Shown here: in pieces, positions 39,788 through 64,000 of the stretch
Layout: each line of letters starts with the position of its first letter
Position numbering within the stretch: position 1 is the stretch's first letter
Source: Terriglobia bacterium
GTDB taxonomy: Bacteria; Acidobacteriota; Terriglobia; 20CM-2-55-15
Assembly: GCA_965218585.1 (NCBI GenBank)
Contig: CBDCLE010000004.1
Span: 64,001 to 128,000 of the forward strand
Length of the DNA stretch: 64,000 nucleotides
Reading direction: 5' to 3'
Made by a program: the position numbers and the translations under genes
Notes under the pieces: generated by a model
Databases searched by the model: none
The model's input: the letters and a program-made list of their open reading frames with translations, nothing else
What the model was told of the DNA's origin: nothing

Positions 39788-39844
39788 GGCCCTCGGGAGG
39801 CAGGTAGTGCGGGATTAGCGTGTGCTGCCCCTGTGTAGTTAGGT

Positions 39845-40117
39845 TTAGGGTTGCGTGGCAGACTCAACAACGGGGCCTACGACGAACCCGTCGTGTTCAA
39901 TGGTCCAGCCAAGATTCCGAAGGACGCTAAACATCTTATTCGGCCCAATTCTTTCCGTGCTCAGAATCTTTCGTAGATGGTCAGGATTAAGCCCCGCCTC
40001 TTCAGCGAATGTGCCTTGATTTCCCCGTCCGCGTACCTCTGATTCTTCTTGCAACCGCGCAATGAAGACAGCGGTCAGAGCATCCGCCAGAGATAGGGAT
40101 GGGGCATGGCTAGACAT
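39845..40117 (-). CDS. Small XRE/Cro-like HTH protein (transposon cargo)
   Basis: QGTFAEEAGLNPDHLRKIL resembles an XRE helix-turn-helix. Confidence 0.55.
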   Translation of the reverse strand: MSSHAPSLSLADALTAVFIARLQEESEVRGRGNQGTFAEEAGLNPDHLRKILSTERIGPNKMFSVLRNLGWTIEHDGFVVGPVVESATQP

Positions 40118-40402
40118 TTGTGTAAGCTTTTACACAAACTATGAATTGGAGTGTGGGGCCTCAAATCTCCACATACCATATATTCAATAGTTATTGTGGC
40201 GACCATATAGCATTGGACCAGATATGTCTATTTGTGTATTACTATACACAGATAGAGAGCAGTGCGACTGTTACTCTCTTCTTGACGGCATGACGACCAA
40301 TGATTACAATGAGCGATTCCACCGTGCGGGGCCCCCTCTCGTCCCTGTACAATGGTTATTGGGGCAGTTTTTCCTTTCTTCTGCCTTATCTGGGGTGATT
40401 CA

Positions 40403-41173
40403 ATGGCAACAGTCGGCAATGAAGCCCGCCTGAGGCAGGCAGATCCAACTCTGCCCGCCCGCGAGCGGTTGATCGTTGCGCTCGATTTTAACAACCGCGA
40501 CGATGCGCTGGGGCTTGTTGATAAGCTTCAAGGCGAGGTGGAAACCTATAAAGTAGGCTACGAACTCTTTATCTCTGAAGGGCCGCAGATCATTGTGAGT
40601 CTCGTACAGCACCAGAAGAAAGTGTTTCTCGATCTCAAGATGGATGATATTGGTGTCACCATGTCGCGGGCTGTGACTGCAATCAAGACTCTCGGGGTTT
40701 CTTTTCTGACGCTGAAGGGTAATGGAGCGACTGCAAGAGCGGCACGTGAAGGGCGTGGGGCTGGCCCGCCACCGCTTTTCTTGCAGGTCACGTACTTGTC
40801 GAGTCAAGATGAAGCGGACCTGCACGATGAGTATGGTGCGAATATCCCGCTGCAGCAGTTCATCAGGATTCGGGCAGAAAAGATTCTTGAGGCGGGCTGC
40901 GATGGCGTAATCGCTTCAGGTGCAAGCGTTGGGGATCTTCGAGGTTATTTGGATGGCCGCGTTGCTCGGGTGAAGACGCCAACAATCGTTGTTCCTGGTA
41001 TCAGGCCGGAGTGGGCAGAGCCGGACGACCATAAGAGATTCTTGACGCCAACGGATGCCATTCATACCGGTGCCGACTACTTAGTTGTGGGACGGCCGAT
41101 CAGGCATGCATCCGATCCAGCTGATGCAGCCCATCGAATCATCGACGAAATACATAGCGCATCTAACGTATAA
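40403..41173 (+). CDS. pyrF: Orotidine-5'-phosphate decarboxylase, divergent (transposon cargo)
   Basis: LIVALD, YKVG, FLDLKMDDI (DxKxxD), PGIRP and GADYLVVGRPI; ATG 40403 follows GGGGTGA. Confidence 0.88.
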   Translation: MATVGNEARLRQADPTLPARERLIVALDFNNRDDALGLVDKLQGEVETYKVGYELFISEGPQIIVSLVQHQKKVFLDLKMDDIGVTMSRAVTAIKTLGVSFLTLKGNGATARAAREGRGAGPPPLFLQVTYLSSQDEADLHDEYGANIPLQQFIRIRAEKILEAGCDGVIASGASVGDLRGYLDGRVARVKTPTIVVPGIRPEWAEPDDHKRFLTPTDAIHTGADYLVVGRPIRHASDPADAAHRIIDEIHSASNV

Positions 41174-41177
41174 AGTT

Positions 41178-41270
41178 TGACGGAGGGGACGGGATTCGAA
41201 CCCGCGAACTGTGGTATCAGCACAGCGCCCGATCCTAAGTCGGGTCGTTTCACCTGACAACAGCCCCTCC
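41178..41270 (-). tRNA. Atypical class II tRNA, anticodon TAG (Leu), with Ser-like acceptor stem and G73
   Basis: Acceptor GGAGGGG/CCCCTCC; anticodon arm CCCGA-CTTAGGA-TCGGG; V-arm CTGTG/CACAG; T-arm GCGGG-TTCGAAT-CCCGT; 3' end G-TCA. Confidence 0.85.
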
Positions 41271-41331
41271 GTCAATTCCCCACCCTACCCACTCCGCAGT
41301 CACATCCGGTCCATAACTCTCAACTAATAAC

Positions 41332-41360
41332 TTGCATACGGGCGTATCATATGATACATT
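41332..41360 (+). promoter_or_regulatory. Sigma-70 promoter with overlapping palindromic operator
   Basis: TTGCAT-17 nt-TACATT, with ATG 6 nt downstream (leaderless). Palindromes ATACG-GG-CGTAT and GTATCATATGATAC overlap the spacer. Confidence 0.65.
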
Positions 41361-41366
41361 ACATAA

Positions 41367-41531
41367 ATGACGACAAAGACTATTAACCTTCGGGACATGC
41401 CAGAAGATCTAGTGAGGAAAGCCAAGGCACACGCGGCACTAGAGGGAATCAGCCTGAAGGCTCTCGTCATTCAGGCCCTAGACCAGGTTGTCCGAGAGGA
41501 AAAGACAGGAAAGAAGATTAAAGAGAAATAG
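41367..41531 (+). CDS. 54-aa ribbon-helix-helix (Arc/CopG-like) protein, below the ORF-track cutoff
   Basis: MTTKTINLRDMPEDLVRKAKAHAALEGISLKALVIQALDQVV...; alternating beta-strand followed by two helices. Confidence 0.8.
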   Translation: MTTKTINLRDMPEDLVRKAKAHAALEGISLKALVIQALDQVVREEKTGKKIKEK

Positions 41532-41956
41532 ATCGGCCCTGCCCGGTGCGACTAACACCAGACAGGGCCTAACTAACTCACGCGATAGAGCCGCATGAGC
41601 CAGCCATCAAACTCATTGTGAACCTGTCCGCGTGGAAAGGCAAGGTTCACAATGACCTGCATCCACTGCCAGCACGACCGAGTTAGAAAGTCCGGCACCT
41701 ACGGTAAGAAACGCATCCAGCGTTACCGTTGCACGTTCTGCGATAAGACCTTCTCAGAAGCCCAAGAAAAGCCTCTCGGAAAGCTCCGTATATCAGTCGA
41801 GAAAGCCGTCCAGATCGTCAATTGCCTCGTCGAAGGTTGCGGTATCCGTGCCACTTCGAGATTGTGTGACGTAGACGCAAAGACGGTTCTTGCCGTACTT
41901 GAGTTGGCCGGAGAACGATGCCAACGGCTCATGGACCGAAAGTTGTACGGCATCAA

Positions 41957-42995
41957 TCGCTTTGACAACGTAAAAAGAGCCCACCCCCGGGTTAATGGTT
42001 TGTAAGTAAATCCGCCGTCGGGGTTGCGGGAAGTGTGGAAGCCGAAAGCTTCCAAGCCGCGGTGGTAACGCGCCGGCTTTGCAGCGGGTTTCCACGGTGG
42101 CGACACTTTCCACAGCCGCTCGCTCGCGTGTGTTTCACGCGGAACCTTGGGCGGACCGGGGTTTCTTCTTCCGTTTGCCCGCGGCACCGAGACTCTCGGT
42201 GAAGCGGATACTTTCCCAATCGAACTGATGAATCGCACAGTGATGGGTCAATCGGTCCAGCAGGGCCGCGGTCAGGGCGGCATCGCCGAACACGCTGGTC
42301 CACTGCGCAAACGGCAGGTTCGACGTCACGATGAGGGAACCCTTTTCGTACCGGTCCGAGAAGACCTGAAACAGCAACTGGGCACCCTCGGCCGAGAACG
42401 GGATATAGCCGACCTCGTCGACGATGAGCAGCTCGAAGCGGGACAACTTCGCCAGTTGCCGCTTCAACTGTCGCTCCTCACGGGACTCGATCAGCGTATT
42501 GACCCGCCCCGCGGCCGTGGTGAACCCGACGCGGTAGCCCCTCCGGCAGGCTTCCACGCCCAGCACCGTCGCGGCGTGGGTCTTGCCGGTGCCGTGCTTG
42601 CCCAACAGCACGACGTTCTCGCACCGGGTGATGGTGTCGCACTCGGCCGGCTGCTCCCGATCGGCCCGCAGCCAGCCCTCCACGATCCCGGCCACCGGGT
42701 CCATCACCGGACAGGCCGGCTCCTTCTCCCGCCGATACTTCGGCTCCTGGCCGGCCAATACTTTCCGGACCGTCCGTCTCGTGTGCCCGGTCTCCCGGGC
42801 GATCTGTCGAATGCTTTTCTTGTAAACTCGATGTGCGGTCCTGACCATCTCGTACTGATCCATCCCTAACAACTCCTTATCCTCCCTCCGCCATGCCGGT
42901 TCATCCAGGCACTCGCCGGGGGAGGCTATCAGGGTGGGTCCTTTTTCCTCGATCAGAACCCCGTTTGGTGGGTCCTTTTTACGTTATCGAAATCA
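41957..42995 (-). mobile_element. Internally deleted IS21-family element (1039 bp)
   Basis: IRs ..AACGTAAAAAG..CCCACC at both ends with an internal repeat; 5-bp TSD ATCAA at 41952-41956 and 42996-43000. Confidence 0.9.
42135..42872 (-). CDS. In-frame IstA(HTH)::IstB(AAA+) deletion fusion
   Basis: SIRQIARETGHTRRTVRK...EQPA is joined to ECDTITRCENVVLLGKHGTGKT...LIVDEVGY...ALLDRLTHH. Confidence 0.85.
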   Translation of the reverse strand: MLGMDQYEMVRTAHRVYKKSIRQIARETGHTRRTVRKVLAGQEPKYRREKEPACPVMDPVAGIVEGWLRADREQPAECDTITRCENVVLLGKHGTGKTHAATVLGVEACRRGYRVGFTTAAGRVNTLIESREERQLKRQLAKLSRFELLIVDEVGYIPFSAEGAQLLFQVFSDRYEKGSLIVTSNLPFAQWTSVFGDAALTAALLDRLTHHCAIHQFDWESIRFTESLGAAGKRKKKPRSAQGSA

Positions 42996-43082
42996 ATCAA
43001 TGCACAGCAGATCCAGTGCGACGAAATTTGGACTTTTGTTCAGAAGAAAGAAAGGCGCATTAAACCTTGGGAGAATGGCAAT

Positions 43083-44447
43083 GAGGTCGTTCCAATCGGT
43101 GTGTAAAAAGAGAAGGCGGTGTACGCTTTCGGTGAATTCGAAACCGTAAGCAATCCCGGCAGCAATCGGGAGAAAGGTACACCACCCATGAAGAAGAAGA
43201 ACATACCGGCATCAGTGGCGTCAACGAACGCGTATGAAGGTTTGGAGGACTGGGCGCGATCCCGGGTCCAAGTCTGGCTACAGGAGCTGCTCGAGGACGA
43301 AGTCACTCAATTTCTGGGTCGGGAAAAGTCGGAGCGGAGTCCGAATCGACGAGGATACCGGAACGGTCACGGGAAACCGCGACGCTTCGCAATGATGAAC
43401 GGTACGATGGAGGTTCGACGACCTCGGGTTCGAAACACCGCCGAGCGGTTCGAGAGTCAGATCCTGCCGTATTTTCGACGGAAATCGAAACAGCTGGGCG
43501 AGCTACTTCCCGATCTCTACCTCCACGGTCTGGCCACAGGGGACTTCGAGCAGGCCATGCGCGGACTGCTTGGCGCTGGCGCTCCGTTGTCGCGAGCATC
43601 GATCCAACGACTGAAATCGACCTGGCAGTTGGAGTATGACGAGTGGGTCCAGCAGGACCTGTCCGGCCTCGAGGTCGTGTACCAGTGGGCAGACGGCTTG
43701 TACGTGAAAGCGGGGATCGCGAAAGAGCGAGCGGCATTGCTGGTGATCATCGGAGCCTTGTCAGACGGGCGCAAAGTGCTGTTGGCCTGTGAGAGCGGGC
43801 AGCGGGAAAGCAAGGAGTCCTGGAGCCGCATTCTGCGCAATCTCCAGAGACGGGGCCTGAAGCTGGGACGGCTGACTGTCGCGGACGGTCACCTGGGCAT
43901 CTGGTCCGCGCTGGCCGAGCAACAGCCCCAGGGCCAGGAACAACGCTGCTGGAACCACAAGTCGATCAACGTGGTCGATCATCTGCCGAAGACCGAGCAG
44001 CCCGCGGCCAGACAGCTGCTTCATGGGATGGCCTTCGCGAACTCCCGCGCGGCCTGCGAACGAAAGCGGGATCAGTTCGTCCGCCGATATGAGAAGAACT
44101 ATCCCAAAGCGGGTGAGACGCTGTTGCGGGACTGGGACCGGATGATTACTTTCTATGAGTTCCCGAAACAACACTGGGTGCATCTGAGAACAACCAACAT
44201 CGTCGAATCGCCCTTCGACATGGTTCGCCTCCGCACCAACGCCGCTCGCCGATTCAAGCGTGTCGAGAATGCAACGGCAATGATCTGGAAGCTACTACGT
44301 GTCGCTGAGAAGGCTTGGCGACACTTAAAAGGATCCGAACTCTTACAAGAGGTCTATGATGGTCAGCAATTCGCTGACGGCATCAGAGTCGTGATGAAAT
44401 CGAAGGCCGCCGCCTGATGACTTTTACACACCTTTTGTAATAACCTC
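43083..44447 (+). mobile_element. IS256-family element, complete second copy
   Basis: Near-identical to 15372-16736; 8-bp TSD ATGGCAAT at 43075-43082 and 44448-44455. Confidence 0.95.
43188..44417 (+). CDS. IS256-family transposase
   Basis: Protein identical to the other full copy. Confidence 0.93.
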   Translation: MKKKNIPASVASTNAYEGLEDWARSRVQVWLQELLEDEVTQFLGREKSERSPNRRGYRNGHGKPRRFAMMNGTMEVRRPRVRNTAERFESQILPYFRRKSKQLGELLPDLYLHGLATGDFEQAMRGLLGAGAPLSRASIQRLKSTWQLEYDEWVQQDLSGLEVVYQWADGLYVKAGIAKERAALLVIIGALSDGRKVLLACESGQRESKESWSRILRNLQRRGLKLGRLTVADGHLGIWSALAEQQPQGQEQRCWNHKSINVVDHLPKTEQPAARQLLHGMAFANSRAACERKRDQFVRRYEKNYPKAGETLLRDWDRMITFYEFPKQHWVHLRTTNIVESPFDMVRLRTNAARRFKRVENATAMIWKLLRVAEKAWRHLKGSELLQEVYDGQQFADGIRVVMKSKAAA

Positions 44448-44674
44448 ATGGCAATGAGATCGGAAGCCAGTACGTTTTCGTGGCGTTTGACCGTGACTCG
44501 AAACTCGCTATCAACCACACGATAGGAAAGCGTAGCCCAGCTACAACCCGTCAATTCGTGGGTGACCTGAAACGCCGTGTCAGTGGGAGGGTGCAAATCA
44601 GCACAGACGGATTTGGAGCTTATCTTGGCGCAATCGAGGATACGTTCGGGGCCAACGTCGATTACGCTCAACTA

Positions 44675-45488
44675 GAGCGTGTTAACACTAATGTAGTGCC
44701 TCGACGATGAGTGCGAAGTGAAGGAAAGCGAGGAACATGACGTCGAGTTTATCGAAACGGGAGAAGATACGCCGAAAATCCTTGAGTCGGCGGAAGAGCC
44801 TCTCGACTTCGTTCCTGCGGCGGTAGAGCACGCGGTCGTATTCCCACGGCTCCAGGCGGTTGCGCTTGGGCGGCACGACGGGAATCCACCCAAAATCCAG
44901 AGCCAATTGGCGGGTCTGGTCGTCCTGGTAGGCACGGTCCATCAGCAGCGGCAGTGGCGCGGGCAACGGCCCCAGGCCGGCGAGCAGATCGCGGCCCTGC
45001 GGGGCGTCGTGCGCTTGGCCGGGCGAGAGCGCAAACGTTATCGCCGTTCGAGCATTCGCGGCAACCAGATGAATCTTGGTGGTCCATCCACCGCGGGATT
45101 TGCCGATCGCTTGCGGACCGTTTTTTTTAACGCTCCCGTGCCGTCGGGATGCACCTTCACAATGGTCGAGTCCATCGAAACGGCTTCCACCCGGATGCGC
45201 ACCAGTTGCTCGCGCTGGAGTTTTTCGAAGACGGCGTCGAGCACCCCGTTCTTGGACCAGCGGTTCATCCGGGTGTAGATGGTGTGCCAGTTGCCAAAGC
45301 GCTTGGGCAGACCGCGCCACTTGCAGCCCTGCTCAGCCACATACAAAATGGCGTTCAAGACCGTCAGGTTCGAAAGACTGACGTTGCCCCGCCGACGCGG
45401 CAGTTCCGGCTCGATGCGACAATACTGCTCCTGTGTGATCTCCATGCCTGATTATAAAACATTCATGCTCATTAGTGTTAACACACCC
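44675..45488 (-). mobile_element. IS5-family (IS427-like) element, two ORFs (45445-45038 and through 44688) joined by a probable -1 frameshift
   Basis: IR G.G.GTGTTAACACTAAT; TA duplication in a CTAG target; A8 run at 45121-45128 (ALKK / KKNGPQAIG); GWTTKIH, MDRAY and RNEVERLF motifs. Confidence 0.92.
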
Positions 45489-45833
45489 TAGTGAAGGTCT
45501 ACCAGAATGAACCCGCAAGGCGAGGACGTTATGCCCCATCGAAGTTCGTCCGGGCGATCTCAACCACCATATCGGGCAATCCCGATCCCAAGCTCATCTG
45601 TACGTCCCACGTCGAACGATGCAATCTCACTATGCGCACCTTCATGCGGCGATTGACGCGCCTATGCCTCGGATTCTCGAAGAAGTTGGACAATCTGAAA
45701 GCCGCAGTCGCATTGCATTTCGCGTGGTACAACTTCTGCCGGGTTCACAGGAGCCTTCGGGTGACTCCTTGTATGGAGGCTGGGTTGGAGGATCATATCT
45801 GGACGATTGAGGAGCTAATCGCATGAGATACTA

Positions 45834-47072
45834 CTACTATGTTACAAACGGTCTATTTTATGTTAGCATCCGGTCATGAGCGCCAAATCGAAGGCGCCAG
45901 GCACTCAGGAAAAACGTTTTGCGGCCTATTTGGAACGCCTGGCGTCGGCCGCAGGACACGCCGATCGTCATGAACCGTTGAAGTCGTACTGCACCGGGTT
46001 GTTGCTGCCGATCAAACGTAAGAGTGTGGAGCCGATGGCTGCACGATTGGCTCCGGATAATGTACGCCGAATGCACCAGTCGCTACATCATCTGGTCGCG
46101 GATGCGCCCTGGGACGATGCGGCTCTGTTGGCAGAAGTTCGACAGTACGCGCTGGGGGCGATGGAAGCCAACGGTCCGATTGAAGCCTGGATTGTCGACG
46201 ACACCGGATTCGTGAAAAAGGGGACCCACTCGGTGGGTGTGGCCCGGCAATACTGTGGACAGGTCGGCAAACCTGAGAACTGCCGGGTGGCGGTGAGCCT
46301 GTCGGTGGCGACAGCGAAATCCAGCTTGCCGGTGGCATGGCGACTCTACCTCCCCGAGACCTGGGCGAAGGATCCGGAACGTCGAAGCAAAGCCGCTATT
46401 CCCGAAGACGTTCGATTTCAAACTAAACCTCAAATTGCTTTGGAACAAATCCGGCAGGCCGTCGATGACGGCATTGCTCCGGCACCGGTTCTGGGCGATA
46501 CGGCCTACGGCAACAACTACAAGTTCCGGCACGGCATCACCGAACTCGGACTTAGCTACGTCCTAGGGGTGCAAGGCACCACGACCGTGTGGAAACCGGG
46601 CCAGGGTCCCTTGCCGCCGAAATCCTTGACCGGCCGCGGACGGACACCGACCCGCATGCAGCGCAACAAGAAACATCAACCGGTTTCGGTCAAGCAACTG
46701 GCCCTCTCGTTGTCTCCCCAGCGTTGGAAGAACGTCTCCTGGCGCGAAGGCACCTCCGAGACCCTGCGTTCCCGTTTCGCCGCAGTTCGCATTCGTCCCG
46801 CTCATCTGGATCACGAGCGCCACTCGCCGCATCCGAAAGAGTGGTTGTTGGTCGCCGAGCGGAGCTGTTTTTCCCCCTCTGCATTTGTCGAGCATGTTGG
46901 ACTATCCGTCCCCAAACTCCCCAAACACTTCAAACCCCGCAGAACCCCGGATCCGGCCCGAACGACATAACCCCTGCTCGATTGCCACGCTTCGCATTCG
47001 CATCGCCCGCTTCCTGATTCAGCAGCTTCCTCATTGTCCGTTCTGTGGACCGCTTCGTTTATAACACAGTAG
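45834..47072 (+). mobile_element. IS701-family element
   Basis: IRs CTACTATGTTACAAACG / CGTTTATAACACAGTAG; TSD TACTA at 45829-45833 and 47073-47077. Confidence 0.9.
45876..46970 (+). pseudogene. IS701-family transposase with probable in-frame internal deletion
   Basis: IVDDTGFVKKG, QYCG and GDTAYG are present. EWLL runs straight into VAER, so the usual RWxIE catalytic segment is missing. Confidence 0.75.
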
Positions 47073-47173
47073 TACTACAAGGGCTACAGGAAAAAAATAT
47101 CAGAACAAAAGCACACGCTGATATGGATTGACCCTGTCAAGCTTCCGTTACGTTTCTCGAATGCGCCTCCTTC

Positions 47174-47375
47174 AATGTGCTGGATTCAGGGCGCGGCCGG
47201 CATGATTCGCGACGGTGGATCACTCTGATATTCGTGGGTTGGCTACCACCTGACATCACTTCGTCGCGGAGCTGCCTCGGTCTAAGGACGTGGGTCGGTC
47301 TGGCTGAGCCAAGCCTCTCATAGCGTGCACGAGGATTCTCCTCACCGGCCTGCCACGCCCTGAATCCAACACATT
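47174..47375 (-). ncRNA. Putative bridge/seekRNA
   Basis: A 24-bp closing stem (47174-47197 with 47352-47375) encloses segments matching the target and the donor junction. Confidence 0.7.
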
Positions 47376-47527
47376 ACGTTTTTTGGGTCCAGCCTTGCTC
47401 CGGAAGCGCATGATGGCATTGCGCCCGGGGAGGCGTCGGAGGAGTTTTCCACACCTTGTCCATGGCACCGCGTGCTTCGAATACACGGCGGAGCAGTGGC
47501 AAGGTGTGGAGAACTCCGGCCCATCTC

Positions 47528-48658
47528 TCAGCTCCGCGCCCGCGTTGCATGGGCTCGGCCCATCACCTCGCAAGCAATCGCCCAGATGAACCCCACCAGC
47601 TCGCGGGCCACCGCGGTGGTGACCACGCACTTCGCCTTGCCCGCGCTATACAGATGCCGGTACCGCGCACACAGCCGCTTCTGGGCTGCCCAGGCGATGG
47701 CCTGCACTGCTGGCGGCGCCGCACTCGCCTTGCATCTCAAGTGCCTGGTTTTGCGCGCAGGGAACCGGTAGCTCCAGGCCGATTCAACCAGCACGCGGCG
47801 CACGTGTCCATTGCCTGTTTTCGTGATGGCTCCTTGGCGCCGCCGCGGCCCCGAGGAGTGCTCGCTCGGCACCAGCCCCAGAAAGCTCATCAGCTCGCGC
47901 GGCGAATCAAAACGCGTCAGGTCCCCGAGTTCGGCCAGCACCGTCATGGCCGTGACCACATCCACCCCGCGCAACGCGATCAGCGCCTCGACCATCGGAC
48001 GCAGCGACCACCGCTCCAACACCTCGCGCATCTGCCCTTCCAGGCCCGCCACGCGGCGGCGCGCCTCCATCACCGTATCGACGTATTCCTGAAACACCAC
48101 CTGCTGTACCGGATGCTCGAACCGCTGCTCCTCCAGCCACCGAAAGTGCCGTTGCGTCCACCGGCTCTTGCCTTCCCGATACACTCGATCATGACGCAGC
48201 AGAAACACCCCCAGTCGCTGCCGAGCCTTGGCCTCGATCGCCTTCATGTCCTCGCGCGCCCGCGTCAGGTCGCGCATCGCCTCCTGCTCCTCGTCGGGCA
48301 CCCACACCGCCGTCAGCTCCCCCGACCGATGCAGCCGCGCCAGCTTCACCGCGTCGCGCCGATCCGTCTTCACTCGCTCCCCCGCGCGCCGCGGGATCAG
48401 GCTCGGCGCGACCACCTCGCAATAGTGGCCGGTGTCGATGATCTCTCGATACACCCCATACCCGCACGGTCCCGCCTCGTAGCAGAAGCTCAACACCTCT
48501 GCGTGCGGACTCAGGCTGCGAATGAGTCGCAGCAGCGATTTGCGTTGATTCTTGATCTCGCCCCGGTACACCGGCGCCTCACGTCCGGGCAGCGCTACCG
48601 CCACCGCGATCGTGTCCTTGTGAACGTCCAGTCCAACGTATGCACTACACTTGTTCAT
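47528..48658 (-). CDS. IS110-family recombinase
   Basis: YVGLDVHK, YEAGPCG, KTDRRDA, GLVPSEHSSG and ITKTGN motifs; ATG at 48658. Confidence 0.95.
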   Translation of the reverse strand: MNKCSAYVGLDVHKDTIAVAVALPGREAPVYRGEIKNQRKSLLRLIRSLSPHAEVLSFCYEAGPCGYGVYREIIDTGHYCEVVAPSLIPRRAGERVKTDRRDAVKLARLHRSGELTAVWVPDEEQEAMRDLTRAREDMKAIEAKARQRLGVFLLRHDRVYREGKSRWTQRHFRWLEEQRFEHPVQQVVFQEYVDTVMEARRRVAGLEGQMREVLERWSLRPMVEALIALRGVDVVTAMTVLAELGDLTRFDSPRELMSFLGLVPSEHSSGPRRRQGAITKTGNGHVRRVLVESAWSYRFPARKTRHLRCKASAAPPAVQAIAWAAQKRLCARYRHLYSAGKAKCVVTTAVARELVGFIWAIACEVMGRAHATRARS

Positions 48659-48901
48659 GACCTGCCCTCCTCGTTGTGGCTCTGTGTCGAAGGTTCCTCG
48701 CCCCGCAACATAACCCACGCGTACGAGGCCAGGGCAGGTCAATCCATGGTGTCTAATCCCGCACTACCGGGAGGCAAGAGTTGGCCGTCTTTCGGGGCCT
48801 CTCCGCGCATTTTCCTGGTAGGCGGTGCTGGCACGCCCGGCACCGTTCTTATGAAAGGACTTTCGTCGTTTGGTGGGACCCCTTATCTCCGCAGAAAGGA
48901 G

Positions 48902-49930
48902 TCACACAACGTGGATGCAGGCTTCGCTGTGCGGAAGAGCGCGGCCGATTTCAGCGACATCGATGCCCTCCCCAACAAGTGCATCGATCAGGCTGGAAGA
49001 ATCTGCTTCGTTTATGAAAATAAGCAAGCCACCGGAGGTCTGGGGATCGAATAGAACGCTCTGGTGGTCTTCCGGTATCTGGGGACTCCAGGTGACGTGG
49101 GGAGAAAAGAATTCGCGATTGCTGTTCAATCCGCCAGCGCGGTGCCCCTTGGCGCTGTAATCGAGAGCACCATCAAAGATCGGCAGGCGGGTGTGGTCGA
49201 CTTCGATGGTCAGATTGCTGGCGCGCGCCACTTCAACGGCATGGCCTGTCAAACCAAAACCACTGATATCGGTCATCGTGCGGACGTCGAACTGAGACAC
49301 GATTTCGGCTGCCCTCTTATTGGTTTCAATCATCGAACGGAGCGCGGCATCAACATGCGCTGCCTCCGCCTCTTCTCTCTTCGAGGCTGTCGCGATGAGT
49401 CCCGTCCCCAGGCGTTTGGTCAGCAACACGCTGTCGCCGGCGAGCGCTCCACTGTTATCTCGAATCCGTGTGGGATCCACAGTCCCCGTCACTGCATAGC
49501 CAAACTTTATCTCTTCGTCCTTAACCGAATGCCCTCCCAGCAGCGCCACACCGCACTCGTTGAGCTTGTCCAAACCCCCGTCAATGATGTCCCTCAGCAG
49601 GCTGGGATCCGCCTTGCCTTCCGGAAAACCTACGACCGAAAGCGCCGTCAGGGGCGTAGCGCCCATCGCGTATATGTCGCTCAACGCGTTTGCTGCGGCG
49701 ATCTGCCCGAAGGAGAAAGCGTCATCAACGATGGGTGCAAAGAAATCGACGGTTTGGACCAGGGCGATATCGTCGGTGAGGCGATACACTCCGGCGTCAT
49801 CGGCATGATCGAAGCCGACGAGGATTTCAGGAATTTGCTGGGCCTTGAGGCCTTTGAGCGCGCGGTCCAAGTCCCTTGGACTTAACTTACCTGCTCAGCC
49901 GGCACATTTCGCAAAACTAGTTAGCTTCAT
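48902..49930 (-). CDS. selD: Selenide, water dikinase, selenocysteine-containing
   Basis: MKLTSFAKCAG(TGA 49897-49895)AGKLSP; DDAGVY, QTVDFF, ANALSDIYAMG and DPQTSGGLL motifs. Confidence 0.95.
49865..49881 (-). promoter_or_regulatory. SECIS hairpin of selD
   Basis: Perfect GTCCAAG-GGA-CTTGGAC stem-loop beginning 14 nt after the TGA. Confidence 0.75.
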
Positions 49931-50327
49931 CCACTCCCTCGAACGCTGCCTGACTTGGGCCAGACTCTTCGCCATCCGGGTGATCTTCACTCATACGACT
50001 GCGGCCGTTGAGTGAACCGCCGTCTTCGATGACCAAGGCTGGCGTGCGGATATCGGCGGTGACGCGCCCCGTAGATCGGATCTCGATCCTCCGGGCGGCT
50101 TCGATGTTTCCAGAAACACGCCCATGGATTTCGACCTCACCGGCATGAATGTCGGCGTGAACGTCGGCGTGCTCACCAACGGTTAAAACATCATCGGTTG
50201 CAATGGAGCCGTGGAAATCGCCATCGATTCTGAGCGTTCCAGAAAACCGGAGTTCCCCGGTTACGGCAGTGCCGTGATCCAGAAAACCGGTGATCTCTTC
50301 AGAGGAAACCTTTCCCCGACGTCGCAT
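49917..50327 (-). CDS. Bactofilin (polymer-forming cytoskeletal protein)
   Basis: GELRFSGTLRIDGDFHGSI...LVIEDGGSLNG beta-helix repeats. Confidence 0.9.
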   Translation of the reverse strand: MRRRGKVSSEEITGFLDHGTAVTGELRFSGTLRIDGDFHGSIATDDVLTVGEHADVHADIHAGEVEIHGRVSGNIEAARRIEIRSTGRVTADIRTPALVIEDGGSLNGRSRMSEDHPDGEESGPSQAAFEGVDEAN

Positions 50328-50345
50328 GGAACCTCCCGGGCGCGG

Positions 50346-51203
50346 TCAGAAGCGCGCCTGAAGCAATCCATTGTAAAGCCTGTCGAGTTCATCTTTCGAA
50401 TGAAAGTGAATCTCGATCTTGCCCTTGTTGCCCGACTGTCGAATCGTCACCTTTGTCGCCAGAGCGCGCTCCAGCCCGCGGATAGCTGCCCGTACGTTCG
50501 GATCGATATCTGTACCCGTCTTTCCCTTCTCACGTTTCGGTCTGCCGGGACGGTTGACCAGGGCCTCGGCTTGCCGAACCGAATAGTTGCCACGGATCAT
50601 TTCCTGGGCCGCGGCCAGAATCTCTTCCGCATCCGTCAGTGAAAGCAGCGCTTTGGCGTGCCCGACCGTGAGTTTTCCGTCCTGCAGCCACAATTGCACT
50701 TCCCCGGGGAGCTTCAACAGTCGAAGCATGTTGGCTATCGTGGCGCGGCTCTTGCCCACACGCTCAGCTAACTCGTCCTGCTTCAGCCCGAACTCCGACA
50801 AGAGTCGTTGATAGGCCTGGGCTTCGTCGATCGGGTTGAGATCTTCCCGTTGAACGTTTTCGACCAGTGCCAATTCCAACGCCTGGTGCTGGTGGGTTTC
50901 ACGGACCAGAGCCGGCACCCGCGCCAGCCCCGCCTTCTGGGCTGCCCGCCATCGGCGCTCTCCGGCAACGATCTGAAAGACGCCGTCCTGGAGCGATCGC
51001 ACCACGATGGGCTGGACCACACCGTGGATCCGAATCGACGCAGCGAGATCATCTAAACCACTGACATTAAATGACTTACGTGGCTGATCAGCGTTCGGAA
51101 TAATCCTGTCGATATCTATTTCACGTAAGCGGTCCGACTCAAGATCGGGTGTGCCGAGCAGTGCGCTCAGCCCCCGGCCTAAAGCTTTTCTCTGCGCGGG
51201 CAT
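50346..51203 (-). CDS. parB: Chromosome partitioning protein ParB
   Basis: LGRGLSALL, QPRK, GERRWRA and ENVQREDL motifs; HTH. Confidence 0.97.
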   Translation of the reverse strand: MPAQRKALGRGLSALLGTPDLESDRLREIDIDRIIPNADQPRKSFNVSGLDDLAASIRIHGVVQPIVVRSLQDGVFQIVAGERRWRAAQKAGLARVPALVRETHQHQALELALVENVQREDLNPIDEAQAYQRLLSEFGLKQDELAERVGKSRATIANMLRLLKLPGEVQLWLQDGKLTVGHAKALLSLTDAEEILAAAQEMIRGNYSVRQAEALVNRPGRPKREKGKTGTDIDPNVRAAIRGLERALATKVTIRQSGNKGKIEIHFHSKDELDRLYNGLLQARF

Positions 51204-51954
51204 TGATGACCTCCTTGGCCAGCCGAATATAGCTCACCGCGCCCTTCGACTTAATATCATAGAGCAGGATGGGCTGGCCGTGGCTTGGGGCTTCGCCAAG
51301 CCGAACGTTCCTGGGTATTTTCGTCGAAAATAACTGAGGGCCAAAGAAAGATGCCAGGTCTGCATGAACTTGCTGCGCGAGGTTGGTTCTCTCATCGAAC
51401 ATGGTAACCAAGACCCCTTCGATTTCAAGGTCCGGATTCCTTTGACGACGGATCTGGCGGATCGTCTCGACGAGCTCGGAGATACCCTCCAGGGCAAAAT
51501 ACTCGCACTGGATGGGGATCAGAACGCTGTCGGCCGCCACGAGGGCGTTTACGGTCAACAGATCCATAGCCGGCGGGCAATCGATCAGAATGAAATCGTA
51601 ATCATCTGCGATAGGATGAAGCAAATCACGGAGTCGACGATCTCTGCCCTCTTCCTGGGCAAGTTCTAGCGTCAAACCGACCAACTCGCGGCCTGCAGGG
51701 GCCAGAAAAAGCGACTCAAGCTCGGTAGGCAGGAGAATGGACGAGATGGGCTCTCCGAACGCCAGCGAGTGATAGGTCGAGTTTTCATAAGCATCCCGCC
51801 GCACACCAAGTCCGGAGGTCGCGTTTCCCTGGGAATCCAGATCCACGAGGAGGGTCCGCATCTCGGCTGCGGCCAAAGACGCGGCCAGATTGATGGCGGT
51901 CGTTGTCTTGCCGACACCACCTTTCTGGTTCGAAATGGCGATGATTCGTCCCAT
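51175..51954 (-). CDS. parA: Chromosome partitioning ATPase ParA/Soj (ORF track extends to 51139, overlapping parB)
   Basis: NQKGGVGKTT, DCPP and IPRNVRLGEAPSHG motifs. The first in-frame stop is at 51139; the conserved domain ends near 51200. Confidence 0.9.
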
Positions 51955-51986
51955 ATGAGGCGGAATGTACCACAGGGCCGGAAAAG

Positions 51987-52002
51987 TGTTCCACGTGGAA
52001 CA
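51987..52002. promoter_or_regulatory. parS centromere site
   Basis: Perfect palindrome TGTTCCACGTGGAACA just upstream of parA. Confidence 0.93.
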
Positions 52003-52143
52003 CTACCCTTAGAGCCCCTTGACCTTGGCTTACTCTGGCCTCCGGAATCGGCTTTTCGACCCAAAAAACTCATCCTGAGTCTGTTGGAGATTCCGGAGTC
52101 TGTTTGAATCCTCTCTCCCAACAGACCCAGAAGAGGTCCGGAC

Positions 52144-52731
52144 TCAAAGCTCAAAAACAAGGGCGCGGCGGTCAGAAAAGGGTATTTCGAGATCATGGGT
52201 GGGCAGCTCCGGAGGTTCGGCTGTCTTGGTAAACCAAACCACATTAGTGGCTTCTGTCTTCTTGGGGCGCATTTTCTCCAGCAACCGGGCTGTCAGCCGC
52301 ACCCCCTGAAGCGTTACCCAATTTGCTGGTGTGATTTCGCTGGCGACATCTTCGAAGCGTCCCCGATGAACCGTAACTCTTTCGAGGCCGAGCTTACGCG
52401 CGGCTTGTCTCAAGAAGGCCGCACGGCGAGTCCGCGCCTCTACCAATTGCGTCGCGGCAAAATCGCCTCGAATATGCCAGGGGATGGCGGGGGAGCCGTT
52501 TCCCGACCCGATGTCCAGATAATATCCCCTTGGCGACAGCCGCTCTAACGCCCAAAGAGGCTCAATGACCAGGTGGCGAATCAGGGAAGGGCCCTTGAGG
52601 GCAGTGAGATTGATGGTTCGGTTCCATCGCTCGAGCTCGAAGATATAGCTCAGAAGCTGTTCGAGCTCCCCATCTCTCAAACGCAACTCGTACTCTTTCA
52701 GTTGAGCTTGGAGAATCGCAGCGTGAGACAC
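52144..52731 (-). CDS. rsmG: 16S rRNA m7G527 methyltransferase (GidB)
   Basis: WNRTINLTA and LDIGSGNGSP motifs; lies after mnmG. Confidence 0.88.
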   Translation of the reverse strand: MSHAAILQAQLKEYELRLRDGELEQLLSYIFELERWNRTINLTALKGPSLIRHLVIEPLWALERLSPRGYYLDIGSGNGSPAIPWHIRGDFAATQLVEARTRRAAFLRQAARKLGLERVTVHRGRFEDVASEITPANWVTLQGVRLTARLLEKMRPKKTEATNVVWFTKTAEPPELPTHDLEIPFSDRRALVFEL

Positions 52732-52766
52732 TAAGCACCGGCGTCAAAGCAATAACTCATTTATTA

Positions 52767-54653
52767 CTATATAGTTACGGCCGATTTGGGGATGGGTTTG
52801 CGGTTTCGCCCCAGCTCCAGATGGAGCAGGACGATGGAGAGCGCTGCAGGCGTGATTCCAGGGATTCGGCTTGCCTGGCCGATCGATTCAGGGCGGATCT
52901 GGGTGAGTTTTTCGGTGACTTCCGCTGAAAGGCCCGGCATAGCGGAATAATCGAGCTCTGCGGGCAGCGTCCGTTCTTCCGACTTCCGTAACCTTTCGAT
53001 CTGGCGTTCCTGCTGCTTGAGATAGCCTTCGTACTTGATCGCTGTCTCGACCGACACAACATCTTCCGGTCTCAGGCCGTCTGTTGACACGATCCCGGCC
53101 GCGGCAAGCGCTTCGAGCCGGATTTCCGGCCTTTTCAATAGGTCATGCAGCCGCGGTTTTTCCCGCAGCTCGATTCCTTGTTCTGCAAAGAACCGATGCG
53201 AAGGATCTATCCGAGTGTCCGCCACGGAAGCGCGTAGGCGGTCGATCCGGACGCGGCGGGCTTCAAAGAGTTCCCACTGGCTGTCGTCAACGAGTCCACA
53301 GGCCCGGCCCACCGGTGTTAGGCGCAGGTCTGCGTTGTCGATACGCAGCTTCAGCCGGAACTCCGCTCTCGACGTGAACATGCGGTACGGCTCGTTCGTT
53401 CCTTTCGTTACCAGGTCGTCGATCATGATGCCGATGTACGCGTCGGATCGGCCCAGCACGAGCGGGCGCTCACCCTGAACCTGTCGTGCCGCGTTGATTC
53501 CCGCCATGACCCCCTGTGCTGCGGCCTCTTCATAGCCGGTCGTGCCGTTAATCTGTCCGGCGAGGAAAAGGCCCGGATAGCGCTTGGTCTCCAACGAACG
53601 CTCCAACTCCGTTGGCTGGACAAAATCGTACTCGATCGCGTACCCAGGACGAATCATGGTAGCCGACCGGAGACCGTCCATCTCGGCGAGCATCTCCCGC
53701 TGAACCTCAATGGGGAGGCTCGTGGACAGCCCGTTCACATAGACCTCGTGGGTGTTCAGGCCTTCGGGTTCGAGAACGATCTGATGCTGGTTCCTGTCGG
53801 GAAACTTAACGACCTTGTCTTCGATCGATGGGCAGTAGCGGGGCCCCAGACCCTTTATCTGCCCGCTGTAAAGCGGCGATCGGTCCATGTTCTTCCGGAT
53901 GAGTTCGTGGATACGCTCGTCGGTTCGCGTGATGTAACAGGAGATCTTGTTCTGGAGAGGCTGCTCGGTCCGAAAAGAAAACGGCGTTGGGTTCGCGTCG
54001 CCCGGCTGTTTCTCGAAACGGTCGAAGTCGATCGTCCGGGCGTCCAGCCGAGGCGGTGTGCCGGTTTTGAGGCGGCCCCACTCGAATCCCATTGCCCGGA
54101 CGGAGTTGCCCAGAGCGCTGGACGCCGCTTCGCCATTGCGCCCTGCAGCAAACTGCTTCTCGCCGATATGGATCAGGCCGTTCAGGAAGGTTCCCGTCGT
54201 CAGTATTAGAGCCCCGGCTGCCACACGACGTCCATCCATCAATTCGATACCGGAAGCACGGGATCCTTCAAATAGAATCTCCGTCACTTCGGCCTGCTTG
54301 ATGTAAAGGTTCTCCTGCAGCTCGAGGACGTTCCGCATTTCCTGTCGGTAGGCGGCCTTGTCGGCCTGTGCTCGCGGTGACCAGACGGCCGGACCGCGAC
54401 TCGTATTCAACAGGCGGAACTGAATTCCAGCGCGATCTGCAACGACGCCCATGATGCCGCCAATCGCGTCTATTTCCCGCACAAGGTGACCCTTGGCAAC
54501 ACCTCCGACAGCAGGATTGCAGGACATCTGCGCAATCAGGTCGGCGTTCATCGTGTAGAGCGCGGTCTGAAGGCCCAGCTGCGCTGCAGCATGCGCCGCC
54601 TCACAACCGGCGTGTCCGGCACCAACCACTACAACTTCGTAACTTTCGTCCAT
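52767..54653 (-). CDS. mnmG: tRNA U34 modification enzyme GidA
   Basis: [29 protein letters not shown] and [12 protein letters not shown] motifs. Confidence 0.98.
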
Positions 54654-54708
54654 TATTTAGCGTCGGGCCCACCGGACCTGTGTCTGGCGCCGACCCTCCC
54701 GCTCGTCA

Positions 54709-56070
54709 CTACTTCCCGATACAGAACGTCGAAAAAATTCTATCCAGTATATCGTCCGTTGCGACTTCACCGGTCAACTCGCCAATGGAAGACAATGCTG
54801 CGTAGAGATCCAACAGGACCATTTCGTGGGGGACCTCGGTCATCAAAGCTGTCGCCGCACTCTCGAGGTTGTCCGTGGCTGCCTTCAGAGCTTCCAGCTG
54901 CCGCTGGTTTGTAAGGACAAACCCTTCGGCGTCGGCGGGACGTTGTTCGTTAATATAACTTCCGATTTCTCGTTCAAGATCTTCCATTCCCGTGCCCGCA
55001 AGCGCGCTCACCCTCACTGCATTCCATCCATTGGATTCTTCCCACTCGGCGGGTAGATCCTGCTTGTTGATGACGACCAGGTGCGGTCGATCCTGAACCC
55101 TTTCGAGAATGGAACGGTCGTCCTCGTCCAGCTCCCGGGAACGATCCAGCACTACCAACGTCAGGTCGGCCTCTCCAAGTGCGGCCAGCGTTCGTGAGAC
55201 GCCCATTGCCTCCACGGTCTCTGTCGCGTCCCGGACCCCGGCGGTATCGGCAAATCGTACGGGCACTCCGCCAACGGAAACGGTTTCGGTCAGCACGTCG
55301 CGTGTTGTGCCAGCAACTTCTGTGACGATTGCGCGGTCATTGGAAACGAGCCGGTTAAACAAGCTCGACTTTCCAACGTTGGGTTTTCCGGCGATCGCGA
55401 GACACAGCCCACCGCCGAGGAGCCGCCCGTACTGAAACGTTTCGGTCAGTTTCCGAAGGCTCGCTGCAATCATCGAAATCCTCTTCGCGGCTTCGGTCGG
55501 TGCGGGTGGTTCGACTTCGTCTTCGGCGAAGTCGATGCCGGCCTCCAGCTCTGCAATTACCGCAACCAGTGTGTCCTTGTCCGGACCGACACGCTTTGAA
55601 AGTGCTCCGTCCATCTGCAACATGGCGGTGCGAGCCTGCGTTTCGGTCTGCGCTTCGATAAAGTCTCGGACAGCTTCAGCCCCGGCTAGATCCATCTTTC
55701 CGTGAGCGACAGCTCGTAAGGTGAATTCTCCCGGCCCCGCGCGCCGTGCACCCGAAGAAACCAGCTCAGAAGTGATCGTGTTCAGTATTAGCGGATTGCC
55801 GTGGGCACTGATTTCAGCGACGTCTTCGCCAGTGTATGAGTGCGGTCCTTTGAAGAACGTGACCACGACTCGGTCGAGTGTGTCTCCCTGGCTTGTGCGA
55901 AAGCTACCGTAGCGCGCGCGCCGGTCTTCAAAAGACTCTTTGCTCTGGAACGAGCGTTCGACGATTGTCTGAGCGTCCGAACCTGAAAGCCGGACAATAC
56001 CGATGCCGCTCCGTCCATGCGGCGTGGATATAGCTACGATCGTGTCGTCGGATGGATAGGTCGCCGGCAT
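54709..56070 (-). CDS. mnmE: tRNA modification GTPase TrmE
   Basis: DTIVAIST, GKPNVGKS, GTTRD and C-terminal FCIGK. Confidence 0.98.
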   Translation of the reverse strand: MPATYPSDDTIVAISTPHGRSGIGIVRLSGSDAQTIVERSFQSKESFEDRRARYGSFRTSQGDTLDRVVVTFFKGPHSYTGEDVAEISAHGNPLILNTITSELVSSGARRAGPGEFTLRAVAHGKMDLAGAEAVRDFIEAQTETQARTAMLQMDGALSKRVGPDKDTLVAVIAELEAGIDFAEDEVEPPAPTEAAKRISMIAASLRKLTETFQYGRLLGGGLCLAIAGKPNVGKSSLFNRLVSNDRAIVTEVAGTTRDVLTETVSVGGVPVRFADTAGVRDATETVEAMGVSRTLAALGEADLTLVVLDRSRELDEDDRSILERVQDRPHLVVINKQDLPAEWEESNGWNAVRVSALAGTGMEDLEREIGSYINEQRPADAEGFVLTNQRQLEALKAATDNLESAATALMTEVPHEMVLLDLYAALSSIGELTGEVATDDILDRIFSTFCIGK

Positions 56071-56134
56071 TTTCCCTAAAGTTGTAAAGATGAAAATCCT
56101 GCCGTACAGGCTCTCCTCAACAGATAACTTCTAG

Positions 56135-57907: not shown

Positions 57908-57916
57908 GGTCCCTCC

Positions 57917-58153
57917 TCAGTCCAACAGATCCACACCCCCGCTGTGCAGCGGGTGGCATCTCGACAAACGCCGAAGTGTTTTCCAAGATCCCCGAATCAC
58001 GCCGTACTTTTCTACGGCCTGGCTTGCATACTCCGAGCATGTTGGCACAAACCGGCATGCGGGAGGCAGCCAGGGCGACAGGACTTTCTTATATCCCCAG
58101 ATCATTCCGAGCGCGATCGATGAAAAAAATGATGTGGTCTCGGTGTCTTTCAT
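57917..58153 (-). CDS. yidD: Membrane protein insertion efficiency factor
   Basis: CRFVPTCSEY and RCHP motifs. Confidence 0.95.
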   Translation of the reverse strand: MKDTETTSFFSSIALGMIWGYKKVLSPWLPPACRFVPTCSEYASQAVEKYGVIRGSWKTLRRLSRCHPLHSGGVDLLD

Positions 58154-58521
58154 GGCGTCGTCCGGAGCACAGACACTAGCTCCGTTCGAAGCGTCTCGAA
58201 GTCCCTCTCCAGGACCGATCGCCGCAGATTAAGAACAACATCAAAACCGGACGGAAATCCTCTTCGCTCCCGCCGAAGAATTTCTCGGATTCTGCGACGA
58301 ATTCGATTTCTTTCATGAGCTTTCCCGAGTTTGCGCGGGGTCGTCAACCCGAACCGGGTCACTTTCGTATCGTTGGGCAGGAAAAAAACGACGAACGAGC
58401 GGGATGTTTTCTTCTTTCCGCCGGCGTAAACAGCTTTGAATTCGCCCGCCTTCCGAAGCCGGGCTTCTTTCGGAAATCGGGCGTCGCCCTCCGTCGCCGG
58501 ATTGCGATCAGTAGTGCTCAA
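58150..58521 (-). CDS. rnpA: RNase P protein subunit
   Basis: RLRKAGEF and [14 protein letters not shown] (RNR motif). Confidence 0.95.
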
Positions 58522-58896: not shown

Positions 58897-58929
58897 CTAC
58901 CCCCTTTCCTTCGCTTTACGGACCGCAAA

Positions 58930-61912: not shown

Positions 61913-64000
<2,088 letters not shown>

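Follow-up and report, generated by a model that had tools for sequence, protein, structure and literature searches.

A serine-type tRNA gene with a leucine anticodon carried by an IS1-family transposon in a Terriglobia bacterium

The window analyzed here is a 64-kb stretch (64,000 nucleotides) of a Terriglobia bacterium genome (Acidobacteriota; GenBank assembly GCA_965218585.1, contig CBDCLE010000004.1, positions 64,001 to 128,000), in which ARAGORN called a single tRNA, "tRNA-Leu(tag)", on the minus strand at 41179-41271. Our results revealed that this feature is a real tRNA-derived gene and that it is cargo of an IS1-family transposon. Further, the identity conflict within the tRNA is real: a serine-type acceptor is set against leucine-like spacing of the variable arm (V-arm).

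The tRNA gene and the ends of its transposon

The gene, its decoding and flanking parts, and the element that carries it are placed as follows.

41181..41270, minus strand: class II tRNA-like gene of 90 nt, from G1 (41270) to G73 (41181) (ARAGORN, sequence, cmscan, family alignment and pair counts)
41235..41237, minus strand: anticodon UAG (positions 34-36) in the loop CUUAGGA, read as C32 U33 UAG G37 A38 (ARAGORN and sequence)
41271..41275, minus strand: 5' leader UUGAC, which pairs with G73 and the trailer UCAA (41177-41181) (sequence)
39803..48768, unstranded: IS1-family transposon of 8,966 bp (perfect terminal repeats and target duplication)

The acceptor stem reads GGAGGGG/CCCCUCC, with G1-C72, G2-C71, and A3-U70, and is followed by the discriminator G73 and directly by TCA; position 8 is C, the anticodon stem is CCCGA/UCGGG, the variable arm combines a 6-bp stem with a 7-nt loop, and the T-arm is GCGGG-UUCGAAU-CCCGU. 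Pairing of leader with trailer adds five pairs to the 7-bp acceptor, giving 12 contiguous pairs, versus zero to two such extra pairs in 11 relatives. The initial annotation had described this cloverleaf (UAG anticodon, the three acceptor pairs, G73, long variable arm, C8, and TCA tail) correctly at every point, and likewise the extension of the acceptor helix to 12 bp by the flanks (7 + 5 contiguous pairs); the ARAGORN run that it proposed returned the leucine label given above.

No Rfam family, tRNA (RF00005) included, reached its gathering score anywhere in the window by cmscan. In E-value mode, the top match of the gene was tRNA-Sec (RF01852), at 43.9 bits against a 47-bit cut-off (E 1.2e-7); the gene falls outside that family both by this score and by its anticodon, which is UAG instead of UCA.

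The claim that the tRNA is transposon-borne gained defined borders. The element ends at 39803-39818 and 48753-48768 in perfect 16-nt inverted repeats, GGTAGTGCGGGATTAG, which are flanked at 39795-39802 and 48769-48776 by an 8-bp target duplication, GGGAGGCA, as is expected of the IS1 family, whose elements have terminal inverted repeats and 8-9-bp duplications; GGTAGTG termini are common to this element and to those at two other loci, L103 and L154. The insertion separates a thiL-like gene from atpF', the first ATP-synthase gene, by 9.2 kb; the same two genes stand ~190-270 bp apart in four of five relatives (G002, G003, G004, and G013), and the empty insertion site was seen in G003.

Charging identity and a proposed decoding role

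The host genome (G000; 26 contigs, 4.55 Mb; 51 tRNAs by ARAGORN) contains a canonical 83-nt tRNA-Leu(UAG), all five Leu and four Ser isoacceptors, and a true tRNA-Sec elsewhere in the genome, and the window tRNA is therefore an extra. As a side observation, no tRNA-His was among the 51 tRNAs called in this assembly, which is 95.5% complete, and the gene may be missing from the assembly.

The initial annotation had given the tRNA a Ser-like body with Leu-like V-arm spacing, and both halves of that description stood up against the host set. The acceptor GGAG with G73 occurs in 4/4 host Ser tRNAs and in 0/5 host Leu tRNAs, the latter all having a GC. start and A73. With canonical tRNA-Ser, the window tRNA shares G1-C72, G2-C71, G73, and the long variable arm, and it departs in having UAG instead of NGA or GCU as its anticodon; the 3-bp D-stem of host Ser tRNAs (10-12/23-25) is also missing, positions 10-25 being G-G and 11-24 being U-C. 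When the 3' half was used as a BLAST query, the best partial matches were canonical tRNA-Ser(UGA) at 7/7 inspected loci. In its T-arm and acceptor, the window tRNA is 93-94% identical to the tRNA-Ser(UGA) of other phylum members, with the same G1-C72, G2-C71, A3-U70, G73, and 6-bp variable stem; compared with canonical tRNA-Ser, the differences are UAG with G37, two unpaired bases instead of one on the 3' side of the V-stem, a 7-nt V-loop, a broken D-stem, and the loss of C11-G24 and U8. The TCA tail is unremarkable, since none of the host's nine Leu and Ser tRNA genes encodes CCA.

According to the parts of PMC9976931 drawn on here, A73 is crucial for leucine identity, a change from A73 to G73 can switch identity from Leu to Ser, and serine identity lies in the variable arm, independently of the anticodon. 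By these rules, serylation is the likeliest charging. We therefore favor, with a probability of roughly 0.55, the reading that the window tRNA is a member of a tRNA family (described below) and is, or recently was, a Ser-inserting decoder of CUA. Under this proposal, the gene would be transcribed from its own promoter beside a divergent ribbon-helix-helix (RHH) gene, and the transcript would be trimmed and given CCA, as for the host's other CCA-less tRNA genes. Seryl-tRNA synthetase, ignoring the anticodon and reading the long arm and the G73 acceptor end, would charge it with serine, and the product would compete with the host tRNA-Leu(UAG) at rare CUA codons, and to a lesser degree at CUG, so that Ser would replace Leu.

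Several observations weigh against this reading, some concerning identity and usage and others, taken up in the next section, concerning the state of this copy. First, the 3' side of the V-stem has two unpaired bases, as in 4/5 host Leu tRNAs, whereas 4/4 host Ser tRNAs have a 6-bp V-stem with one unpaired base on each side. Second, CUA codons in related transposase genes align with conserved Leu, Ile, or Val, not with Ser, and serine insertion would therefore harm the element's own enzyme. As far as that codon alignment goes, the element does not depend on CUA being read as Ser.

The same observations are those that would fit a leucine-accepting tRNA, with which the transposon would supply a CUA decoder for its own genes, as phage-encoded tRNAs do. 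Like tRNA-Leu(UAG), the window tRNA has the host-Leu V-arm geometry and G37, the latter as in CUN-reading Leu tRNAs; CUA occurs at 3.4 per 1000 codons in the host versus 9/710 in the transposase genes of the window, of the related genome G001, and of L103, and these CUA codons fall at conserved hydrophobic positions. Nevertheless, we consider this alternative improbable. The discriminator is G73, not the A73 that goes with a GC. start in 5/5 host Leu tRNAs and that PMC9976931, in the parts consulted, presents as the crucial leucine determinant whose change to G73 switches identity to Ser; the acceptor and T-arm are of the tRNA-Ser(UGA) type; and the codon counts are tiny, with the same-genus elements alone giving 4/440 codons, which is not significant.

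The tRNA family and the condition of the window copy

A scan for the 22-mer spanning the T-arm and acceptor, with one genome per species, gave 45 loci, ~21 of which were canonical tRNA-Ser by ARAGORN and inspection. The rest included class II tRNAs whose acceptor begins GGAG.., all except one of them having G73, and whose anticodon is UAA, CAA, UAG, or UAU, from Acidobacteriota and from metagenome-assembled genomes (MAGs) labeled Proteobacteria, Dehalococcoidia, Kapaibacterium, and Aquilonibacter. The family alignment comprises 12 distinct sequences, including those of G001, G112, and G171. Nine of the 12 were found by a pattern that fixes the 3' T-arm/acceptor strand, which excludes variation there by design, and the members are related, so that alignment cells are non-independent events; the informative changes are those in the D and anticodon stems and at pairs 1-72, 5-68, and 49-65.

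Other searches gave a sparse picture. BLAST in 40 relatives returned no close homolog of the window tRNA, only T-arm matches, and BLAST in 400 genomes of the phylum gave a long match in one genome only (G171). A class-wide pattern scan of 401 genomes found the window copy and two chance-like matches, with a pattern that was too strict and missed the known G001 copy. A metagenome pattern combining UAG with the 3' half had five matches, all canonical tRNA-Ser with CTTAGGA in the leader. The tRNA-Sec model run over 151 genomes yielded, among the secondary matches inspected, five canonical Leu(UAA), eight canonical Ser(UGA), and one Ser-like UAU tRNA (G112). The 151-genome and 401-genome tallies include three unpublished genomes (G090, G110, and G118), on which no claim rests.

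Across the 12 members, the canonical 7/5 cloverleaf is paired in 97.2% of 251 cells, and 12/21 of its pairs change on both sides; 0/500 shuffles matched the observed pairing percentage or covariation score, and sliding the partner columns by 1-3 lowered pairing to 43-61%. Between the window and G001 copies alone, pairs 5-68, 29-41, and 31-39 differ on both sides. The D-arms of the 11 relatives are ordinary (3-5-bp stems, 7-11-nt loops), and 11/11 relatives reach an Rfam gathering score, at 33-62 bits. The anticodon loops follow decoding rules: U33 is present in 12/12, and position 37 tracks position 36, with G37 after G36 in 4/4 UAG members and A37 in 8/8 UAA, CAA, or UAU members. The family anticodons correspond to the host's rarest codons, the frequencies per 1000 in 1,137 long open reading frames (ORFs) being CUA 3.4, UUA 2.5, AUA 5.1, and AGA 5.0. 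One relative, L127, has a canonical tRNA-Ser(UGA) body in which only the anticodon arm is changed, that arm being identical to the window's. Taken on its sequences, the family is one of tRNA-Ser-derived class II tRNAs with a 7/5 cloverleaf and anticodons changed to rare Leu or Ile codons, recurring inside or beside transposons.

The alignment also bears on whether the window tRNA is a genuine allo-tRNA, as the initial annotation had suggested. In the parts of Mukai et al. (2017, NAR 45:2776, PMC5389517) used here, what defines an allo-tRNA is a Sec-like D-arm together with an acceptor branch of 8/4 or 9/3 form. The window tRNA shares with them the long variable arm (6-bp V-stem), G73, and a non-Ser anticodon; its best cmscan match is tRNA-Sec, the route by which, according to the same text (PMC5389517), allo-tRNAs were first found; and bulging G13 allows a 6-bp D-stem of Sec type, with AGGU as the tetraloop, to be drawn. 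The pairing across the family stands against it. Pair 8-65, which the 8/4 or 9/3 fold requires, is formed in 0/12 members (C-U in the window tRNA), whereas pair 49-65 of the 7/5 fold is formed in 12/12 (G-U in five, A-U in five, G-C in two). Further, the 9/3 fold of the window tRNA is 5 kcal/mol worse than the cloverleaf (-29.5 vs -34.4 to -35.1 kcal/mol). The comparison with published allo-tRNAs that the initial annotation had called for brought no match: the motifs CTTAGGA, TTTAGGA, CTTAGAA, and CTTAGA are all absent from the supplementary tRNA table of Mukai et al. (PMC5389517), and the single published 9/3 UAG allo-tRNA has a perfect 9-bp acceptor stem and an unrelated sequence. Membership of the 8/4 or 9/3 class is thus refuted at the level of sequence covariation, and we regard it as hardly credible; the window tRNA would be allo-tRNA-like in concept, yet it fails the defining structural test.

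The initial annotation had also named an absence of covariation among homologs, and hence a decayed pseudo-tRNA, as the outcome that would undo its proposal. Covariation is present in the family, and decay remains a live reading for the window copy, not for the family. According to that reading, the window copy is a dead relic that no longer folds, goes unprocessed and uncharged, and is decaying in a defunct transposon. The irregular D-arm pointed out initially is one sign of it: in the register of the relatives, the D-stem has 1/4 pairs (G-G, U-C, U-A, and G-A), as opposed to at least 3/4 in 11/11 relatives. C11-G24 is absent, positions 8, 14, and 15 are unlike those of most relatives, and the window tRNA alone in the family lies under every Rfam gathering score. 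In the minimum free energy (MFE) structure (-39.3 kcal/mol), a competing 10-bp pairing joins nt 8-17 to the 3' strand of the variable arm, and this structure is 4-5 kcal/mol more stable than the cloverleaf variants (-34.4 to -35.1 kcal/mol). MFE folding is not decisive on function, because only 7/12 family members give the cloverleaf as their MFE. The five extra leader-trailer pairs might hinder 5' processing. In addition, three nested elements, every one with inverted repeats of its own, interrupt the IS1 transposase gene, five further transposase genes lie around it, and the exact D-arm pattern of the window tRNA had 0 matches in the metagenome collection.

Against the relic, no pair is lost among the 23 of the acceptor, anticodon, variable, and T stems, and the anticodon loop has its canonical form; L127, which is well formed, has letter for letter the same anticodon arm, T-arm, and acceptor; and a shifted 3-4-bp D-stem is possible. 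The damage is limited to one arm and is therefore unlike the spread expected from neutral decay. We thus hold the relic to be a possible, if rather unlikely, account, and favor a decoder that is, or recently was, Ser-inserting. By its D-arm and Rfam scores, the window copy is the weakest and most degenerate member of the family, and its activity is probably weak or being lost, because the D-arm is damaged and the transposase destroyed.

Related elements and known systems

The remaining features of the transposon, from left to right, are the following.

39845..40117, minus strand: 90-aa ORF, cargo (ORF list; no Pfam match at E <= 0.01)
40352..41173, plus strand: OMP-decarboxylase-like gene, cargo, a divergent second copy, which stops 7 nt from the tRNA 3' end (Pfam OMPdecase)
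41344..41357, unstranded: candidate operator palindrome GTATCATATGATAC between the tRNA and the RHH gene (sequence)
41367..41531, plus strand: RHH gene, 54 aa, divergent from the tRNA (Pfam HicB PF05534, 21.2 bits vs a cut-off of 21, E 2.7e-4)
41652..45826, plus strand: IS1-family transposase gene in four pieces, 41652-42005, ~42993-43079, ~44456-44675, and 45488-45826 (Pfam, tblastx)
41961..42991, unstranded: nested element with an IstB (IS21) ATPase gene fragment (inverted repeats 41961-41985 and 42967-42991; Pfam IstB_IS21)
43075..44455, unstranded: nested IS256-type element with a Mutator-family transposase at 43119-44417 (inverted repeats; Pfam Transposase_mut)
44671..45492, unstranded: nested IS4/IS5-type element (inverted repeats 91% complementary; Pfam DDE_Tnp_1 and DUF4096)
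45876..46970, plus strand: DDE_5 transposase gene, past the stop of the IS1 transposase and before the right inverted repeat (Pfam)
47528..48742, minus strand: IS110-type transposase gene, before the right inverted repeat (Pfam)

The C-terminal piece of the transposase matches Pfam DDE_Tnp_IS1 at 19.9 bits (E 1e-3), under the 24.1-bit cut-off, which is passed by its homolog at L105 (31.6 bits); by tblastx, the window transposase matches the IS1 transposases of L103 (E 4e-52) and L105 (E 6e-25). The product of the RHH gene also matches FitA-like_RHH, at 23.7 bits (E 4.8e-5), under the 27-bit cut-off. On the tRNA strand, the palindrome GTATCATATGATAC overlaps the -10 of a sigma-70-like candidate promoter (-35 at 41373-41368, -10 at 41351-41346), as found by a consensus scan only. 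The OMP-decarboxylase-like gene is only ~41% identical to the pyrF of relatives, and another copy lies elsewhere in the genome; its use as a "pyrF" synteny marker was dropped, the gene being a second, divergent copy that is itself transposon cargo. Part of it (40833-41048) is matched exactly by an RNA-library contig from a sponge metatranscriptome, and for the tRNA locus, RNA-derived contigs gave only short mismatched T-arm pieces of other organisms, which are uninformative on expression either way. Beyond the transposon stack, which is ~10 kb from dnaA, the window borders, at 48902-64000, a replication-origin gene cluster (parB, parA, rsmG, mnmG, mnmE, yidC, dnaA, dnaN, and gyrB).

The closest related element is in G001, of the same genus (L147 = G001:C9:454200-459100), with 79-82% nucleotide identity across the RHH-transposase backbone. 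There the RHH ORF is intact, and the transposase, colinear with the window gene, has no nested insertion but leaves the frame of its homologs after ~residue 212. Its cargo includes a Ser-type tRNA with anticodon UAG (L147:660-744), which scores 61.3 bits on the Rfam tRNA model. In these two species of one genus, the elements share one intergenic target, with the thiL-like gene on one side and the ATP-synthase operon on the other; they are oppositely oriented, and each has its own perfect target duplication (the 8-bp GGGAGGCA in the window, the 9-bp TAGTTCCCG in G001), which suggests independent insertions into a preferred target site.

Other members of the family also lie with transposase genes. 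At L103, an IS1-type transposase and a Ser-type tRNA(UAG) are found together between perfect 16-nt inverted repeats (GGTAGTGGGTCAGTTT) with an 8-bp duplication, and at L105, perfect 15-nt inverted repeats enclose an IS1 transposase, a tRNA(UAU), and a small ORF. G171 contains two 99.9%-identical copies of a 2,533-bp element (L067 and L084, positions 86-2618 each), with a 174-aa ORF of no known family, a Ser-type tRNA(UAU) that is well formed and encodes CCA, and a DDE_Tnp_1 + SWIM transposase, in this order on one strand. L129 contains an IS1595-type fragment. Overall, a transposase gene is found within 2 kb of the tRNA in at least six of 11 elements, including those of the window and G001, the tally covering these elements only. 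The trait is distributed patchily in the host family: a wider pattern scan of 35 genomes found it in G000 and G001, together with one odd G003 sequence and three spurious matches. In G003, a tRNA-like stretch (G003:C2:2981291-2981362) has an anticodon-type loop, ACUUAAGAU, a T-arm, GGGTTCGATTCCC, and no recognizable D-arm.

The G001 element is also informative on whether the window gene could be a tRNA-like RNA with a non-translational role, as a processing signal of transposon transcripts, as a regulator, or as the RHH protein's toxin-like partner. The tRNA is divergent from the RHH gene, with a common palindrome between them, and the G001 tRNA directly abuts another tRNA-like hairpin; moreover, the parts of PMC5389517 drawn on report that 6/6 allo-tRNA(UAU) variants were inactive in translation and propose transposon or toxin-antitoxin roles. 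By contrast, the tRNA and RHH genes are 2.5 kb apart in G001, and the partner genes differ in L103, L105, and G171, so that there is no fixed protein partner; the decoding rules in the anticodon loop (U33, and position 37 tracking 36) are, in addition, unneeded for a purely structural role. We consider such a role more improbable still than leucine charging. The narrower idea of RHH and tRNA as a fixed toxin-antitoxin-like pair was likewise weakened: the RHH gene (82% nucleotide identity to that of the G001 element) and the transposase form the conserved transposon backbone and travel together, and the position, orientation, and neighbors of the tRNA differ in G001.

Several further sequences touch on this subject. 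The stretch that abuts the 5' end of the G001 tRNA(UAG), L147:581-659, has acceptor-like GCCCGGG/CCCGGGC pairing and a GGTTCGAATCC T-loop; it was called a tRNA by neither ARAGORN nor Rfam and is reminiscent of the "polycistrons of irregular tRNAs" of Mukai et al. (PMC5389517). In the host genome, a second conflicted tRNA of 87 nt (G000:C19:34293-34379; L153:2794-2880) has a Ser-type body (GGAGAGG..) whose V-arm spacing is 1/5/1, together with U73 and the anticodon UCU, for Arg AGA. Its Rfam tRNA score is 62.1 bits, and a normal 74-nt tRNA-Arg(UCU) is present elsewhere; the conflicted tRNA lies 677 bp outside an rve-type insertion sequence with 53-nt inverted repeats, which appears to split a FAD-binding (sdhA-like) gene. 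A third odd tRNA of 89 nt (G000:C22:178573-178661; L152:2574-2662) combines a long variable arm and the anticodon UGC (Ala) with the acceptor GGCGCGG, U73, and C33, and scores 36.3 bits on the Rfam tRNA model; on one side of it is a GTAGTGGTCTG-type terminus (~L152:2433) and on the other a further IS1-family transposase gene, so that it is probably cargo too. In an Acidobacteriaceae MAG, an Acido-Lenti-1 RNA (RF01687; 48 bits, above the cut-off) occupies L101:2390-2435, 366 nt downstream of a Ser-type tRNA(UAA).

Together, these elements lead us to a generalization that we put forward tentatively and still regard as doubtful, namely, that across phyla, IS1-family and some other transposons spread serine-accepting 7/5 class II tRNAs as a mobile, codon-specific mistranslation module. 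If so, the anticodon loops, including position 37, would have been retuned to the host's rarest A-ending codons (CUA, UUA, AUA, and perhaps AGA), and the module would be separate from the allo-tRNAs with their unusual structure. It would affect foreign genes rich in AT more strongly than those of the host, or act as a device for stress or addiction. In nature, tRNAs with a conflict between charging identity and anticodon are rare, and they bear on the evolution of the genetic code, on deliberate mistranslation, and on chassis for code engineering. The published bacterial cases, the allo-tRNAs, are marked by a strange fold; the set described here is parallel to them and has a normal fold, and it passes unnoticed because standard tRNA finders label its members "Leu" or "Ile". 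If its members are charged with serine, horizontal transfer in bounded insertion sequences could change how a recipient reads its codons, and the intact relatives in G001, L103 (L103:1794-1880), and L127 (L127:1999-2104) form a directly testable set.

Among known systems, allo-tRNAs come closest. In the parts of Mukai et al. (PMC5389517) used here, 9/3 species are reported with AGA/AGG, UUA/UUG/CUA/CUG, and UAA anticodons; in E. coli, tRNAs of this kind proved toxic and placed Ser at CUC and UUA, and their genes lie near toxin-antitoxin and transposon genes in Acidobacteria. The window tRNA resembles them in its long variable arm, G73, GGAG-type start, and non-Ser anticodon (which in allo-tRNAs includes those for Leu codons), in its acidobacterial source, in scoring best on the tRNA-Sec model, and in its proximity to transposon and toxin-antitoxin genes. 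It differs in that its family is canonically 7/5, as opposed to an 8/4 or 9/3 branch with a long D-stem and tetraloop, and in its placement as cargo inside a bounded IS1-family transposon. The tRNA-Ser(CAG) of CTG-clade yeasts and Ascoidea (PMC6041473) is reportedly another serine-type tRNA decoding a leucine codon of the CUN box, and in one case it competes with a Leu tRNA; that system is eukaryotic and chromosomal, with a fixed or stochastic genome-wide code change, whereas the window tRNA is on a bacterial mobile element and the host's normal Leu decoder is kept.

With IS1-family insertion sequences that carry passenger genes, the element shares a probable DDE_Tnp_IS1-type transposase, GGTAGTG termini, and an 8-9-bp duplication, and it differs in that the passenger is a tRNA gene of conflicting identity. 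In the full-text literature searched, we found no account of IS1-family elements carrying tRNA genes and no description of bacterial 7/5 Ser-type tRNAs with Leu anticodons. A Leu-to-Ser identity swap of an E. coli tRNA was reportedly engineered by Normanly et al. in 1986. The engineered E. coli swaps presented in the consulted parts of PMC9976931 combine, like the window tRNA, a Leu-like class II body with a Ser-type acceptor end and G73, a combination that there gives serine acceptance; those are laboratory constructs, whereas the window tRNA is a natural, mobile gene whose serine charging is predicted.

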